DNA of 22,486 bases from a virus, in the UHGV virus genome UHGV-0255042, one strand, 5' to 3'. Shown here piece after piece: positions 8,851 through 14,148 of the stretch. Below the pieces are notes generated by a model. It was not told the DNA's origin. It ran no database searches and saw only the letters and a list, made by a program, of their open reading frames with translations. A program made the position numbers and the translations under genes. Each line of letters begins with the position of its first letter. The stretch's first letter is position 1.

Positions 8851-8984
8851 GAAACGTTGCTGGCGTCTGAACTTGCTTCTGGCGTCAGCAAGGTTGAACA
8901 ACGAGCTGTGCGAGGCGTTAGCTCTGTGGTGCATGTCTATGCCGCATGAGATCGCATGATCGTTTGAGGATCGTTTTTGCTAAG

Positions 8985-9010
8985 GCCTGCCAGAACTGGC
9001 GGGCTTTTGT
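8985..9010 (+). terminator. Rho-independent terminator candidate after the SOS module
   Basis: GCCTGCCA / TGGCGGGC stem (one G-U pair) followed by TTTTGT. Confidence 0.45.
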
Positions 9011-9054
9011 GTAGATCATGCAGGTGCATGAAAACCACTACATAAAGCGGGCAG

Positions 9055-9067
9055 GCGTGGCGGGGAT
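9055..9067. other. Candidate cos (cohesive-end) site, GGCGTGGCGGGGA
   Basis: Matches the first 13 nt of the 186/P2 cohesive-end sequence as I remember it (GGCG[A/T]GGCGGGGAAAGCA...), then diverges. Recalled from memory, not verified. Confidence 0.3.
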
Positions 9068-9151
9068 ACGAGCGCGCGCAACAGGTAAACCCCTAGACTT
9101 GTTAAAATATTTGTCATATAAATCAAACATCAAACCTAAGGGAGGCAGAGG

Positions 9152-10585
9152 ATGATCCAGCCAAAAGTTTTTATATCCTATAGTTGGTCAAGTAAAACTC
9201 ATCAGCAACATATCAAAGATATAGCTGAACGATTGGCGGCAGATGGAGTTGAAACTGTCATAGATATTTATGACTTGAAAGAAGGGGATGATAAAAATTA
9301 TTACATGGAAAGAATGGTTCAAGATGAAACGGTTACGCATGTTTTAGTCATTTGTGATAAAAAATACTCAGAAAAAGCCGATTTAAGAAAAGATGGTGTC
9401 GGTGTTGAGTCGATGATAATTTCCCAGGAAATATATTCATCCGTGTCGCAGTCCAAATTTATACCATTAATATTTGAGTACAAAGATAATGGAGAGCCGT
9501 ATACTCCAATCTTTCTGAAGTCTAGAATCTATATTGATTTTTCAACGCCAGAAAAAGAAAATGATAATTGGGAACGTTTAATCAGGTTGCTTTATGGAAA
9601 ACCAGAATTTACTAAGCCACCATTAGGTAAGCCTCCGGTTTATTTAGAGCAAGACACGTCAAAACCGACGTATGAAATTCATGCAAAATTTCAAACTTTA
9701 AAATCAGCTGTCTTAAATCAAAAGCAGACATTAAAGGATTGCAGAAGGCAATTTTTAGAGGTGTGCCGAAATTATTGTATCTCACTACAAGTCGTAACAA
9801 ACCCAACTACTGAAGATTTTGCAGCGGAAGTTTTGCAAATTCATAAAGAGCTTATTGCCGTTAGGGATGCCATTACAGACTGGGTTTTACTTGAGGGTGA
9901 TACGCAGGGCGAAGACTTTTCCAAAGCACTATTACAGTTTATGGAAGTAATGTTAGCGATTAGAAATCGTCCGAAAAATGTAAATTCATATAATGAAATA
10001 TGGTTTTTACCCCATAAGATTTTTGCGTATGAAACGTTTTTATATATTTTGGCGGCTTTAATAAAAATTGAAGCTTTCCAGCATGTACATACATTACTGC
10101 ATACATCTTATTTGCTACCCGATCATATAACCAGTCCGGGAATGGAGTTTGCTAATTACAGTGAGTTATATTTAAGCTCTGATTACCTTCAAAGTAAATT
10201 GTCCCCTGAAAACTATCGACTGTATTCCCCTGTTGCTGAGTTAGTAAAGCAAAGTGCAACTAGAGATGATGTGTCTTTCGATGATTTGAAACAAGCTGAT
10301 CTTGTTGCTCTTATGATATCCTTCATTAATCCCAGTATTTTTTGGTACCCGCAAATGTTGTTGTATTCCGGGCACTATGAGAAATATCCTCTATTTACAA
10401 GAGCAATACAGCATAGAGGATTCAAGAGTATTGCAGTTATTACCGGAATCGATGATAGTAAACTTTTGGCTCAAAAGCTGACAGAGGGTGAGGCCCAGCG
10501 AAATACTAGCAACTGGTATCATTTCGGTTTTAATAGAGACTTTCTCAATCAAATGAATGTTAGTCGTCTAGATAGTATTGAATGA
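9152..10585 (+). CDS. TIR/SEFIR-like (STIR) N-terminal domain fused to an unrecognised ~320-aa C-terminal domain; candidate anti-phage defence protein
   Basis: 477-aa ORF with SD AAGGGAGG. N-terminus KVFISYSWSS ... VETVIDIYDL ... THVLVICDKKYSEKA ... FIPLIFE follows the STIR pattern. Visibly AT-rich versus the backbone. Sits between the A/SOS module and Q. Confidence 0.6.
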   Translation: MIQPKVFISYSWSSKTHQQHIKDIAERLAADGVETVIDIYDLKEGDDKNYYMERMVQDETVTHVLVICDKKYSEKADLRKDGVGVESMIISQEIYSSVSQSKFIPLIFEYKDNGEPYTPIFLKSRIYIDFSTPEKENDNWERLIRLLYGKPEFTKPPLGKPPVYLEQDTSKPTYEIHAKFQTLKSAVLNQKQTLKDCRRQFLEVCRNYCISLQVVTNPTTEDFAAEVLQIHKELIAVRDAITDWVLLEGDTQGEDFSKALLQFMEVMLAIRNRPKNVNSYNEIWFLPHKIFAYETFLYILAALIKIEAFQHVHTLLHTSYLLPDHITSPGMEFANYSELYLSSDYLQSKLSPENYRLYSPVAELVKQSATRDDVSFDDLKQADLVALMISFINPSIFWYPQMLLYSGHYEKYPLFTRAIQHRGFKSIAVITGIDDSKLLAQKLTEGEAQRNTSNWYHFGFNRDFLNQMNVSRLDSIE

Positions 10586-10592
10586 AAATTAG

Positions 10593-10614
10593 AGGGCGCT
10601 TTGCAAAGCGCTCT
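10593..10614. terminator. Bidirectional terminator between the convergent cargo gene and Q
   Basis: 16-nt perfect palindrome GCGCTTTGCAAAGCGC flanked by GAGG / CTCT, between the stops at 10585 and 10620. Confidence 0.5.
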
Positions 10615-10619
10615 CTGTA

Positions 10620-11660
10620 TTAGTTTTCAATATCTAAGGTGTAGGGCTCAAAGCGGATCACTTCTTCGCCCAGCCAGTCGTTAAGCTCCTGCAGTCGCTT
10701 CTGCAGCGGCATCAGCTCGTTGCGGACAAAGACGCGGCTGGCCTTTTCCACATCACCAAAGCCGCCGGTATTGTTGGGAATGATGCCCATCATCTGCGGC
10801 GGCACGCGGTGAGCAGCCATCATGTCATCACGGCTCACGTTCTTGATGTTCAGAAATTCATCCTTTGCCGCAACTTCCGACAACGGGATTATCTGGATGC
10901 CGTCCTTTTTACCGTTGGGCGAATACATAAACAGGTTGCGGAAGTTGCCCGGCCCTTTGGCGCTTTTCATTGCCTGGCGGATATTGTTCACGTCCTCCTG
11001 ATTCTGTGCTGCGTCGGTCATGTACATGATGAAACCCGCGTGGCTGCCGTTGATGTAATACTTCCGGCGAAACAGCGTTGCTGACTCGTTGAGCAGGGTT
11101 GACGGGATGGCGGAGAGATAGCCGGGCAGCCCGTAAATCTCCTGATTAATATCCGGTTCCAGCAGATGAAAGATGTTGCCCTGCGTAAATTCATAGGGCT
11201 GCGTGGTCATGCCATACTGCACAAACCAGTAGGTGTCGAGATCCACGCCGCGCCGTGTGTACTTCGCCAGTGCTGGCTCCAGCGAGAGAACGCCGCCGAC
11301 CCGGTTGGTGCGCTTTTCCAGATAGGCGTTACCGAACACCAGATAATCCTGGACGAAACGGGCAAAAGCCTGCTGGCTGAGCAGGCGGTGCGGGATATAG
11401 GTACTGCTGAGAATGTCACGCTTAACGGCAATCGGTGAGCTGTGATGCACGGCGGCGCGATAGGTCCGCGCCAGTCCGTCAAAGCTCACCGGCGGTTCAT
11501 ACCAGCGATCCATCTGCACGCATTCCACGTAGTTCAGCAATTCGCGTCGGTCTAACACCGGCACCGGGTCGCCAAAGCTGAACGCCTCTGCCGCAGCACC
11601 GCCTGAATTTGCGTTGTGATCTACTGCTGCGCGGTTATTCTTGTTTTTACGTTTGCTCAT
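10620..11660 (-). CDS. Q: Portal protein (P2 gpQ-like)
   Basis: 346 aa, close to the ~344 aa I recall for P2 Q; position next to the terminase, leftward late operon. Confidence 0.9.
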   Translation of the reverse strand: MSKRKNKNNRAAVDHNANSGGAAAEAFSFGDPVPVLDRRELLNYVECVQMDRWYEPPVSFDGLARTYRAAVHHSSPIAVKRDILSSTYIPHRLLSQQAFARFVQDYLVFGNAYLEKRTNRVGGVLSLEPALAKYTRRGVDLDTYWFVQYGMTTQPYEFTQGNIFHLLEPDINQEIYGLPGYLSAIPSTLLNESATLFRRKYYINGSHAGFIMYMTDAAQNQEDVNNIRQAMKSAKGPGNFRNLFMYSPNGKKDGIQIIPLSEVAAKDEFLNIKNVSRDDMMAAHRVPPQMMGIIPNNTGGFGDVEKASRVFVRNELMPLQKRLQELNDWLGEEVIRFEPYTLDIEN

Positions 11661-12382
11661 GCCGCCTGCTCCTTGTCAGTCTGGGGCCATTCGCACATAA
11701 ACAGCATTTTCCAGTCCTCTGCTGATAACTCTTTTTTCATGTCATTAAGCCATTCATCATCAAAGAGCGCGGCTCCGGTTGCGAGCGTTGCCCCGGATGC
11801 TGCAGCGTCATCAGCGGTAAAAATCATGCTGGTTGTGCTGTTGCGGGCAATCAGCTTCTTGTATTCCCGCCATGCTTCCGAGCTGGGGCTTGGGGTGGTG
11901 TAGTAGGTAGCGTGATAGCGCGCGTGCATGGACAGGCTTTTGGCGAGCGCAATCATATTTTTCGGGGAGTCCGCCCAGGCATACTCTGACACATAGACGT
12001 TTCCATGGAGCGCGGCGGCGAGACTTTTCGGCCCGATAAAATAAATGACCGCACCGTTAGGTAGTTCCAGATGCGCTTTACCTGATTTTATTTTCCCAAG
12101 GTGTGTCCAGGTTGCGGCCTGATCTATAAAGGCTGACATATAGGTTTTGACTGTCAGGGCGGATGCCGGGGTGCAGCCAAGAAAAATCTGGTTGCGTCCG
12201 GTATGCAGTGCATCGTTCAGGGCTTCGTAGGCGAAAAAGAAATCCGCGCCAGCCTGATGCATTTTTGTAAGCACACGGTTTCTGCTGCGTGCGCCGCTGT
12301 TCCATTCATGCTGGTAAGCAAAGAAAGGGCGATCTACAGGCAGGCTGGCGGTGGTCATGAGGTTAGTTGGGGTTGAGTGCAT
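11657..12382 (-). CDS. Terminase ATPase-domain paralog (241 aa): diverged, truncated, lacking the N-terminal and nuclease regions; function unknown
   Basis: Aligns by eye to the central part of the adjacent terminase: ALNDALHTGRNQIFLG vs ALIDALLTGRNQIFLS; LPNGAVIYFIGP vs LPNGAALYFLGT; HGNVYVSEYAW vs HGNLYLDEYFW; YTTPSPSS vs YFSTPSS; LFMCEW vs LLMCEF. ATGA overlaps with P upstream and Q downstream. Confidence 0.7.
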   Translation of the reverse strand: MHSTPTNLMTTASLPVDRPFFAYQHEWNSGARSRNRVLTKMHQAGADFFFAYEALNDALHTGRNQIFLGCTPASALTVKTYMSAFIDQAATWTHLGKIKSGKAHLELPNGAVIYFIGPKSLAAALHGNVYVSEYAWADSPKNMIALAKSLSMHARYHATYYTTPSPSSEAWREYKKLIARNSTTSMIFTADDAAASGATLATGAALFDDEWLNDMKKELSAEDWKMLFMCEWPQTDKEQAA

Positions 12383-14148
12383 CAGAAAATCTCCACAATG
12401 TTGCTGGTATTGGCGGCTTCGCCCTGCAGCGGTTCGTTAAACAGTGCGTGCATCGTTGCCCAGGCCAAATCTGCGTGGCTGGCTTCTTCGCTGCGGCTGG
12501 CTTCGTAGGTAGGTCGGTTGCCGCTGGCGGTGGTGGCCCGGCGGATAGCCATAAAGGACTGCGCAATGTCAATGTGTCCGGCGTCAAACTCCAGACGGCG
12601 GTGGCTGATGATGTCGTAGGCCTTGAGCACCAGGGCGTTTTTGACGTTGGGGTTGTAGACAAACTCCCGCACGGCAGGAAAGAACGCTTTCACGTTCTCG
12701 TAGACACCGTGACCGACGCCGGTCGAGTCGATGCCGATATAGGTCACGTTGTACTGCTGCGTCAGTTTTTTAATGGCGTCAGCCTGGGCGCGGAAGTCCA
12801 TCCCGCGCCACTGGTGTCGCTCCAGAATGCGGAACTTGCCGCCCGGCACGGTTGGCGGTGCCACCACCACGCACCCGGCGCTGTCACCGTTCTGCGTGCC
12901 TTTCGCCGGGTCGTATCCGATCCAGACTTCGCGCCAGCCAAACGGGCGCAGGGCCAGAGCATGAAAGTCGGTCCAGACTTCCCAACTGTCCACCATGCAC
13001 GCCTGCAGCTCGCTGAGCGGAAACACGGACGCGAGATCGTCCACAAACTCGCACATCAGTAGGTTCTGGTATTCGTCCGGGCTGTACTCCATGCGCAACT
13101 GGTCGAGGTCGAACAGGTTACAGCCGCCGCGCACCGCATCTTCCACAGTGACTATCTGGCGGTACTGTCCGTCAGGGCAGAGCAGGCCGCGCGCAAGATT
13201 GCTGTGGGTCAGGTCAATATCCACCTTGTCCGCTTTGGCGCGGCCCCGGTTAAACAGCGCACCGGACCAGAACGGATAGGCACTGTGTGTCAGGCTGGAT
13301 GGCGTGGAAAAATAGGTTTGTCGCCATTTCTTGTGAATGGCCATCCCGGAGGCAACTTTGCGCAGTTCCTGGAATTTCGGTATCCAGAAATATTCATCAA
13401 GGTACAGGTTGCCGTGGTAGCTCTGCGCCGTACGGGCGTTGGTGCCGAGAAAGTACAATGCTGCGCCATTAGGTAGCACCATAGGATCGCCTTTCAGCTC
13501 CACCTCAACTTCTTTGGCAAAGTCGATGATGTACTGCTTAAAGACGTGCGCCTGTGCCTTACTGGCAGAAAGGAAAATCTGGTTACGTCCGGTAAGCAGG
13601 GCGTCAATCAGGGCTTCACGGGCAAAGTAAAAGGTCGCGCCGATCTGGCGTGACTTCAGCAGGTTGCGGATGCGGTTGGTTTTTCCGGCTTCCCACCAGT
13701 GGCGCTGGTAGTTGAACATGGAGGAATAAAAGATTTCTTCCAGCTTCTCAATCTGTTCATCGGTGAAAACGTTCTTTTCCGGCTGACGGCGCGGGCCTTT
13801 GTTGCGGTTGGCGACGTTAGGGTTTAAGTCGGCTTCGTTGCCGCCATTGTTAAACTTGCCGATCCGCGCATGGCGCTCCGACTGGCGCGCCAGCAGGTCA
13901 ATCTCTTTGAAATCTTTCCCTTCTTTGTGCTCCTTCATAATGAGCTGGCAGTAGCGTGCGGCGGTGGTGAGCTGCATCTGATCCAGCGGCCCATAGTCAC
14001 CCCACTTGTCGCGTTTTTTCCAGCTGTGAACGGTTGCAACTTTCTCGCCCAGCATTTCAGCAATGCGGGCTACGCGGTATCCCTGAAAGTACAGCAGCAT
14101 GGCCTGCCGACGGGGATCGAGATCTGCGGGTGTCAGTGTGGTGTTCAT
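12382..14148 (-). CDS. P: Terminase large (ATPase) subunit (P2 gpP-like)
   Basis: 588 aa (P2 P is ~590 as I recall); N-terminal HTH-like region, central ATPase core; first gene of the leftward late operon. Confidence 0.9.
   Translation of the reverse strand: MNTTLTPADLDPRRQAMLLYFQGYRVARIAEMLGEKVATVHSWKKRDKWGDYGPLDQMQLTTAARYCQLIMKEHKEGKDFKEIDLLARQSERHARIGKFNNGGNEADLNPNVANRNKGPRRQPEKNVFTDEQIEKLEEIFYSSMFNYQRHWWEAGKTNRIRNLLKSRQIGATFYFAREALIDALLTGRNQIFLSASKAQAHVFKQYIIDFAKEVEVELKGDPMVLPNGAALYFLGTNARTAQSYHGNLYLDEYFWIPKFQELRKVASGMAIHKKWRQTYFSTPSSLTHSAYPFWSGALFNRGRAKADKVDIDLTHSNLARGLLCPDGQYRQIVTVEDAVRGGCNLFDLDQLRMEYSPDEYQNLLMCEFVDDLASVFPLSELQACMVDSWEVWTDFHALALRPFGWREVWIGYDPAKGTQNGDSAGCVVVAPPTVPGGKFRILERHQWRGMDFRAQADAIKKLTQQYNVTYIGIDSTGVGHGVYENVKAFFPAVREFVYNPNVKNALVLKAYDIISHRRLEFDAGHIDIAQSFMAIRRATTASGNRPTYEASRSEEASHADLAWATMHALFNEPLQGEAANTSNIVEIF

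Follow-up and report, generated by a model that had tools for sequence, protein, structure and literature searches.

A bSEFIR family gene carried as cargo in the gpA-gpQ hotspot of a P2-like prophage

INTRODUCTION

Bacterial proteins with a SEFIR domain are enriched in defense islands, and one of them, from Bacillus sp. NIO-1130, protects Bacillus subtilis against phage phi29; the substitution D40A abolishes this protection, and D40 is needed for the interaction of SEFIR domains with each other (Millman et al., 10.1101/2022.05.11.491447). The same study reported homologs in 460 genomes from more than 20 phyla, Methanosarcina included, and selected them by the rule that the N-terminal SEFIR match be stronger than the TIR match (10.1101/2022.05.11.491447). 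An adaptor function for bacterial SEFIR domains had been hypothesized by Yang et al. in 2018, as quoted in that paper (10.1101/2022.05.11.491447). SEFIR has also been described as a defense that consists of one protein, acts by NAD+ depletion through the SEFIR domain at its N terminus and is overcome by the NARP1 pathway of phages (10.1101/2024.02.11.579819). A comparable logic applies to proteins of the DSR2/DSR1 type, in which detection of the phage by the C-terminal domain switches on an NAD+-degrading domain at the N terminus (10.1101/2024.02.11.579819). Our literature search found no cryo-EM or mechanistic work specific to bacterial SEFIR proteins and no experiment on the enterobacterial clade that is borne by P2-like prophages, the validated protein being the one from Bacillus.

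The interval between gpA and gpQ of P2-like phages is a hotspot that holds old, tin and many other genes (Rousset et al. 2022, PMC9122126), and a supplementary table of that study lists "hypothetical + TIR_2/SEFIR + DinI" among the gpA-gpQ arrangements. Here, we analyzed a gene in this interval of the virus genome UHGV-0255042, a stretch of 22,486 nucleotides that we call the window. The original prediction, made from the letters of the sequence, was that the gene encodes an abortive-infection protein in which a TIR/SEFIR-like domain is joined to a C-terminal domain in a pairing that might be undescribed. We find that it is an already known defense system in an already known hotspot and that the domain pairing is not new.

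RESULTS

The window carries a P2-like prophage, whose features are collected in Table 1. The bSEFIR gene lies between gene A and portal Q, in a segment that is variable from about position 9085 onward. The idea that the A-to-Q interval is a site for defense cargo agrees with the literature, where this interval is the cos-proximal defense hotspot (PMC9122126). A P2/186-type cos sequence, GGCGAGGCGGGGAAAGCAC, was not found in the window when up to three mismatches were allowed. At the far left, an open reading frame with a SocA/Panacea domain adjoins the integrase gene (202..669, minus strand).

Table 1. Features of the prophage and of the cargo cassette, in window coordinates
Feature	Position	Strand	Basis or remark
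Integrase	835..2010	-	
CI-type repressor	2250..2825	-	
Dam-type methylase	4936..5853		
gpA-type replication gene	5850..8264		
62-aa PHROG-698 gene	between gpA-type gene and DinI		
DinI	8545..8850		
Terminator-like hairpin with U-run, closing the A/DinI early region, 5' of the cargo cassette	8982..9012	+	RNA fold -19.6 kcal/mol, z -2.7
Variable cargo cassette (putative promoter, Shine-Dalgarno, bSEFIR ORF, terminator)	9086..10619	+	megablast left limit, GC drop, Q stop codon
Candidate sigma-70 promoter, TAGACT-17 nt-TATAAA, weak, read by eye	9094..9122	+	sequence; inside cassette
Shine-Dalgarno GGAGG, 6 nt 5' of ATG	9141..9145	+	sequence
bSEFIR gene, 477 aa plus stop, ATG start	9152..10585	+	ORF; PADLOC bSEFIR; PHROG 11745; E. 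coli annotations
N-terminal SEFIR (STIR-superfamily) domain, residues 4-147, presumed NADase effector	9161..9592	+	Pfam, PDB 5Y8E, Foldseek
Codon of D38	9263..9265	+	66/66 in diverse alignment A2
Codon of E86, in GVGxE motif	9407..9409	+	invariance
Flexible interdomain linker, residues 152-171	9605..9664	+	pLDDT <50 in full-length model
C-terminal all-alpha domain, residues 172-477, specific to the bSEFIR family, presumed sensor/regulator	9665..10582	+	
Bidirectional palindromic terminator of bSEFIR gene and Q, 12-bp palindrome	10590..10617	both	folds on either strand
Portal Q, right border of hotspot (context)	10620..11660	-	portal annotation in homologous phage/prophage; Phage_portal Pfam at orthologous loci
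Terminase P	12382..14148	-	followed by head, lysis and tail genes

The reading frame has exactly the coordinates and length first given for it, and its translation contains the three motifs that had been singled out, KVFISYSW, THVLVICDKKYSEKA and FIPLIFE. The ribosome binding site proposed for the gene is there as well, and so is the convergence with Q, the stop codons of the two genes being 34 nt apart. This gap contains a 12-bp hairpin, as expected of the shared palindromic terminator that had been proposed, and the hairpin folds at -18.1 kcal/mol on the plus strand (z -4.2) and at -13.4 kcal/mol on the minus strand (z -3.4).

The gene was also described as visibly AT-rich, and its GC content is 0.358 against 0.527 in the remainder of the window; no other stretch of 1434 bp in the whole window has a GC content as low, and the GC3 of the ORF is 0.31 compared with 0.57 in gene A and 0.70 in gene Q. 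The left limit of the cassette was set by megablast, in which some 540 E. coli genomes matched the window from 8264 to about 9085 and not beyond; on the right, the cassette is delimited by the stop codon of Q. The drop in GC content coincides with the left limit. The early-region hairpin sits within the backbone that is common to E. coli prophages lacking the SEFIR gene, which ends at about 9085, and since the roughly 540 SEFIR-less genomes match up to that point, the edge of the cargo falls just 3' of the hairpin. Foreign composition and cassette borders agree with the horizontal acquisition that had been suggested from AT-richness, and they support the view of the cassette as cargo that this P2-like prophage gained horizontally in its cos-proximal gpA-gpQ hotspot.

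A consensus promoter scan flagged no promoter for the cassette; the candidate given in Table 1 was missed because its -10 hexamer ends in A and not in T. A 45-aa open reading frame at 9018..9155, which overlaps the start codon of the bSEFIR gene, was rejected as a gene: it has no family match, is unannotated in E. coli JS316 and was recorded as spanning the upstream terminator hairpin.

Among 5426 complete E. coli genomes, seven carry the gene, with at least 99.5% DNA identity and the annotation "SEFIR domain-containing protein." The order A, 62-aa gene, DinI, SEFIR is found in six of them, and the seventh has an additional HNH endonuclease. Two accessions in the table of Rousset et al., WP_001154434 and WP_001217575, are the proteins that flank the bSEFIR gene in E. 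coli JS316. Klebsiella phage ST15-OXA48phi14.1 has a copy with 99.2% protein identity. The identity between the window and this phage is about 80% along the backbone and 95.5% across 8926-11587, so the cassette and most of Q look like a recombined block. A survey of homolog neighborhoods, which had been proposed as a check, placed orthologs from Salmonella (81% identity), Pectobacterium (61%) and Hafnia (49%) at the corresponding site of P2-like prophages, in each case 3' of gpA and convergent to the portal gene. The homolog of Pseudomonas cichorii adjoins a transposase and a bpMoxR/VWA pair, and no partner gene is conserved, the prophage backbone genes gpA and Q being the only neighbors that recur from locus to locus.

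The rarity of the gene in E. coli, and the copy in Escherichia phage 500465-1, which aligns in six pieces in a way that suggests frameshifts or sequencing errors, could be taken to mean that the cassette is inert or decaying cargo without a current function. We give this reading a minimal probability, as the 477-aa frame is intact and equipped with a Shine-Dalgarno sequence and a terminator, every residue that is invariant in the family has been kept, and identity is at least 99% across the E. coli and Klebsiella carriers.

Between terminase P and portal Q lies an additional gene of 241 aa (11657..12382, minus strand), whose start overlaps the stop of P and whose stop overlaps the start of Q. 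It encodes a stand-alone terminase ATPase domain (Pfam Terminase_6N; 31% identity to gpP residues 145-368) with degenerate motifs, the Walker A-like sequence being KMHQAGAD compared with KSRQIGAT and the Walker B-like sequence VYVSEY compared with LYLDEY. Of the 5426 E. coli genomes, 17 have this gene, among them the seven that carry the SEFIR gene, and it also occurs in an isolated phage of Yersinia, vB_YpM_MLG42. ST15-OXA48phi14.1 lacks it, as do the relatives in Salmonella, Pectobacterium and Hafnia.

By sequence, the 477-aa protein is clearly a full-length member of the bSEFIR family with both domains. It matched the PADLOC bSEFIR model PDLC03957 with an E value of 1.2e-102 (342.8 bits; residues 3-475 on profile positions 38-384 of 412) and the full-length phage protein family PHROG 11745 with an E value of 1.9e-223. 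When the halves were scanned separately against the bSEFIR model, the N-terminal 159 aa gave an E value of 5.9e-79 (265 bits), and the C-terminal 308 aa gave 3.8e-16 (58 bits, positions 204-384) and no other match. The C-terminal region belongs to the known family because it matches this model by itself. Together with its occurrence at the same position in hundreds of relatives, the near-identical annotated genes and the entry in the published catalog of the P2 hotspot, this speaks against the suggestion that the pairing of domains might be undescribed. The link to full-length proteins of Bacillus runs through the PADLOC model and through a protein of Clostridium phage D-1873, which aligns with residues 5-473 at 29% identity. 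For the 477-aa protein, NCBIfam gave no meaningful match and Pfam no domain beyond SEFIR and TIR_2.

The proposed TIR/SEFIR-like nature of the N terminus was borne out by Pfam, where residues 4-144 matched both SEFIR (E value of 2.2e-14) and TIR_2 (4.9e-14) above the curated cutoffs. Under the selection rule of Millman et al., SEFIR is only marginally ahead (54.4 versus 53.3 bits), and clearer support comes from the ranking of folds. In a Foldseek comparison with the PDB, a check that had been recommended, the bacterial SEFIR structures 5Y8E and 5Y8F of Bacillus cereus came out on top (TMt 0.83-0.86), followed by the IL-17RA/RB/Act1 SEFIR assembly and then by the TIR domains of MyD88 and SPARTA. 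The identity to 5Y8E/5Y8F is about 40% over residues 4-158 (E value of 2.5e-29). Searched against PDB sequences, the family profile reached SEFIR proteins only, with Act1 at an E value of 2e-4 and no TIR chain. Because of this fold ranking, and because the profile reaches Act1 and no TIR chain, the N-terminal domain is thus of the SEFIR type within the STIR superfamily.

The TIR_2 match above cutoff, together with the validation of a TIR-plus-transmembrane system in the same P2 hotspot (PMC9122126), raises the question of whether the protein could be a TIR-like enzyme of the kind found in Thoeris (ThsB) or in AC1 ("TIR + TM"), producing a nucleotide second messenger as a signal for a separate effector. 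We regard this as extremely unlikely: there is no adjacent effector gene, the neighbors here and at orthologous loci being DinI and the portal gene; the PADLOC matches to multigene TIR systems are weak (E values of about 1e-5) and limited to the TIR portion; and the family works as a single gene (10.1101/2022.05.11.491447, 10.1101/2024.02.11.579819).

Two residues of the SEFIR domain stand out by their conservation. E86 is invariant in 69 of 69 sequences of the diverse alignment A2 and in 45 of 45 of alignment A1, compared with 37 of 69 for E74 in A2, and this invariance makes E86 the best candidate for a catalytic glutamate. The loop of residues 82-85 next to it is poorly modeled by AlphaFold2. 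D38, invariant in 66 of 66 sequences of A2, aligns with an aspartate of 5Y8E and may be the equivalent of the interface residue D40 of the Bacillus sp. NIO-1130 protein.

After bacterial SEFIR, the nearest folds are the adaptor-type SEFIR domains in IL-17RA/RB and Act1, and the family profile also reaches Act1 by sequence. This brings up the older hypothesis of Yang et al. (2018, as quoted in 10.1101/2022.05.11.491447), by which the domain would be a nonenzymatic interaction adaptor scaffolding another process and no NAD+ would be destroyed. This appears highly unlikely for the bacterial family, in which E86 is invariant at the position where human Act1 carries a histidine. The family is moreover reported to deplete NAD+ through its SEFIR domain, with NARP1 overcoming the effect (10.1101/2024.02.11.579819), and in the loci that we compared there is no adjacent conserved partner gene.

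The full-length AlphaFold2 model has a pLDDT of 84 and consists of two domains and a disordered linker. The C-terminal half is confidently predicted to be all-alpha (pLDDT of 94) and in fold comparison resembles helical repeats. The PDB search returned no specific solved relative of this domain and no full-length bSEFIR structure. In the BFVD viral fold search, the only significant match to the C-terminal model was a 103-aa target with 62% identity, apparently a fragmentary homolog. A search with the C-terminal domain alone against 1.84 billion cluster representatives gave 571 matches, in which the domain occupies approximately residues 160-480 of representatives of about 450-500 aa. In the family members examined, it occurs solely behind SEFIR/TIR domains: out of 81 diverse members, TIR_2 was matched in 66 and SEFIR in 63, and no alternative N-terminal domain was seen. 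The diverse members with neither match are mostly shorter (290-370 aa) and may be incomplete sequences, and one representative of 659 aa (P0228) has a longer N terminus.

More than 1200 homologs of the full protein were found; the best 120, almost all 475-495 aa long, align over 99-100% of its length. Homologs at 47-50% identity with a named source include those of Pseudomonas, Vibrio, Shewanella, Hafnia, Ekhidna, Chloroflexi and Thermotogota. A search of species-representative genomes with alignment A1 gave at least 516 loci that code for a relative, one of them in a Methanosarcinales archaeon, in agreement with the published spread of bSEFIR (10.1101/2022.05.11.491447).

This distribution bears on the possibility that the gene is a prophage-borne virulence factor that mimics SEFIR or TIR proteins of an animal host and interferes with its IL-17 or TLR pathways. 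The likeness to the IL-17R/Act1 SEFIR fold and the presence of human and animal isolates among the E. coli and Klebsiella carriers would fit such a role. However, full-length homologs with 41-50% identity occur in free-living environmental bacteria of the Chloroflexi, Verrucomicrobia, Nitrospira and Planctomycetes and in the Methanosarcinales archaeon, no secretion-related domain was found in any of the domain and family libraries searched, and the gene is located in a defense hotspot. A function in virulence is therefore a very remote prospect.

DISCUSSION

Our results corroborate the view that the cargo gene encodes a bSEFIR-type, presumably NAD+-depleting, single-protein prophage defense, which we consider very probably the best explanation of the gene. 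The proposal of a single-gene abortive-infection system, with an N-terminal STIR NADase and a C-terminal sensor, fits the published description of bSEFIR and the full-length membership of the protein. Like the bSEFIR proteins of Millman et al., it is encoded by one gene, has its SEFIR domain at the N terminus and continues into a C-terminal region specific to the family; each half is matched by the family HMM, the candidate functional Asp and Glu are invariant, and the genomic context is rich in defense genes. It differs in belonging to a gammaproteobacterial clade on P2-like prophages that is known from sequence, while the validated protein is from Bacillus. The bSEFIR model has 412 positions compared with the 477 aa of our protein, which implies insertions here, and the C-terminal half is the more divergent one.

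The SEFIR protein of Bacillus cereus F65185 (5Y8E/5Y8F) shares the motifs FISYSW, VLVICD and GVGTE with the protein studied here, although in that case only the isolated domain was solved. The eukaryotic SEFIR proteins IL-17RA/RB and Act1/TRAF3IP2 (PDB 9OT1) have the same subtype of the STIR fold, detectable by profile and by fold, but they are signaling adaptors and have no such C-terminal all-alpha domain. The DSR2/DSR1 systems follow the same single-protein logic, with a large helical sensor where we see a helical-repeat-like C-terminal domain. This likeness is an analogy only, since their effector is SIR2 instead of SEFIR, they are much larger and no sequence relationship is detectable. 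The other cargo of the gpA-gpQ interval (old, tin, retrons, DUF4238, DprA-PRTase and the AC1 TIR + TM system) occupies the same slot and presumably has the same role in competition between phages, but through unrelated proteins and mechanisms; AC1 is a three-gene TIR-plus-transmembrane system, in contrast to the single gene here. Thoeris, CBASS with a TIR effector, SPARTA and TIR-NLR/AVAST were considered and rejected, as the protein and its flanks contain no ThsA, no cyclase with SAVED, no short Argonaute/APAZ and no STAND NTPase.

Our analysis establishes the family membership of both domains, their fold and conservation and the genomic setting; defense activity, NAD+ depletion and the parts played by E86, D38 and the C-terminal domain are deduced from work on the family. 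With this literature as a guide, a course of events can be proposed for the defense. In the lysogen, the protein would be made from its own small cassette and kept inactive. Upon infection by another phage, the C-terminal all-alpha domain would detect a cue, and the SEFIR domains would then associate through an interface that may include D38. Once assembled, they would hydrolyze NAD+ to ADP-ribose and nicotinamide, E86 being the likely catalytic residue. The resulting depletion of NAD+ would halt phage replication and confer an immunity of the abortive-infection type, and the cassette would in this way benefit the prophage by excluding competitors.

The cue itself invites some speculation. R238, E294, Y298, W398, P400 and F415 of the C-terminal domain are near-invariant from Proteobacteria to Chloroflexi and archaea, which is unusual for a domain that is expected to track fast-evolving phage proteins. 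This could indicate that the domain forms a pocket for a conserved small molecule or a host-state signal and is not a receptor for phage proteins, a reading that we find unlikely. If it were true, the signal could be sought in E. coli, for which the enterobacterial clade on P2-like prophages would offer a tractable model. Since the C-terminal match to the bSEFIR model (58 bits) is far weaker than the N-terminal one (265 bits), the trigger of the P2-borne clade could also differ from that of the Bacillus protein.

In conclusion, the gene carries little weight as a discovery: standard defense-finding tools would call it, RefSeq already has a name for it and its occurrence in the hotspot of P2 has been tabulated. 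Its residual value is that of a bSEFIR native to E. coli and Klebsiella on a small, self-contained cassette, in which sensing by the C-terminal domain could be studied. Such a system could help in asking whether prophage-borne NAD+ depletion shapes the outcome of phage therapy in Klebsiella and E. coli.

The gpA-gpQ hotspot and the prophage end

Positions 8926-11587 of the window, spanning the SEFIR cassette and most of the portal gene Q, share 95.5% identity with Klebsiella phage ST15-OXA48phi14.1; in the backbone on either side, identity to this phage drops to ~79-82%. This difference indicates that E. coli-type and Klebsiella-type P2-like phages recently exchanged DNA by recombination, with part of Q moving together with the cargo. 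Similarity to the Klebsiella phage is weak and patchy in the left arm of the prophage, where it is limited to short scattered segments of 68-76% identity, so the two phages probably have different integration modules although the late region is common to both. Just past the integrase, at the end of the prophage, lies an ORF with a SocA/Panacea antitoxin domain, for which no match was found in PADLOC.

The interior of the hotspot undergoes fine-scale turnover, as shown by the extra genes that adjoin near-identical SEFIR genes: an HNH endonuclease gene in E. coli JS316 (11001-11720 of that locus) and genes for three hypothetical proteins, one of 280 aa, in the Klebsiella phage (8029-9308 of that locus). 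PAAR-motif proteins are an unusual cargo at this locus, and genes for two of them (123 and 458 aa) are found in the hotspot of the Hafnia-type P2-like prophage (3498-5273 of L087/L088), directly upstream of the SEFIR ortholog.

The P2/186-type cohesive-end sequence GGCGAGGCGGGGAAAGCAC was not found anywhere in the window with up to 3 mismatches allowed. The gap between the SEFIR gene and Q is just 34 nt long, and the cos site expected in this interval was not located.

Features at the prophage end and between genes P and Q (window coordinates)
Feature	Position	Strand	Length (aa)	Domain or family
SocA/Panacea antitoxin-domain ORF	202-669	-	155	Pfam E 2.1e-19; PHROG 1281
Integrase	835-2010	-	391	Int_N domain
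Stand-alone terminase ATPase-domain gene	11657-12382	-	241	Pfam Terminase_6N; PHROG 3746

A terminase-domain gene between P and Q

An extra gene is positioned between the terminase gene P and Q, and since it overlaps both by a few bases, it looks translationally coupled. Its product consists of the terminase ATPase domain alone, corresponding to positions 123-371 of the PHROG profile, and shares only 31% identity with residues 145-368 of gpP. Substitutions of R to H, T to D and D to S make its Walker A-like and Walker B-like motifs degenerate, and judging from these changes, the protein is probably ATPase-dead.

The gene is absent from most of the P2-like relatives examined. It occurs in 17 of 5,426 E. 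coli genomes, including all 7 that carry a near-identical SEFIR gene, and its product is also encoded by Yersinia phage vB_YpM_MLG42 (94.6% amino acid identity). The protein may regulate packaging, or it may interfere with rival phages or satellites.
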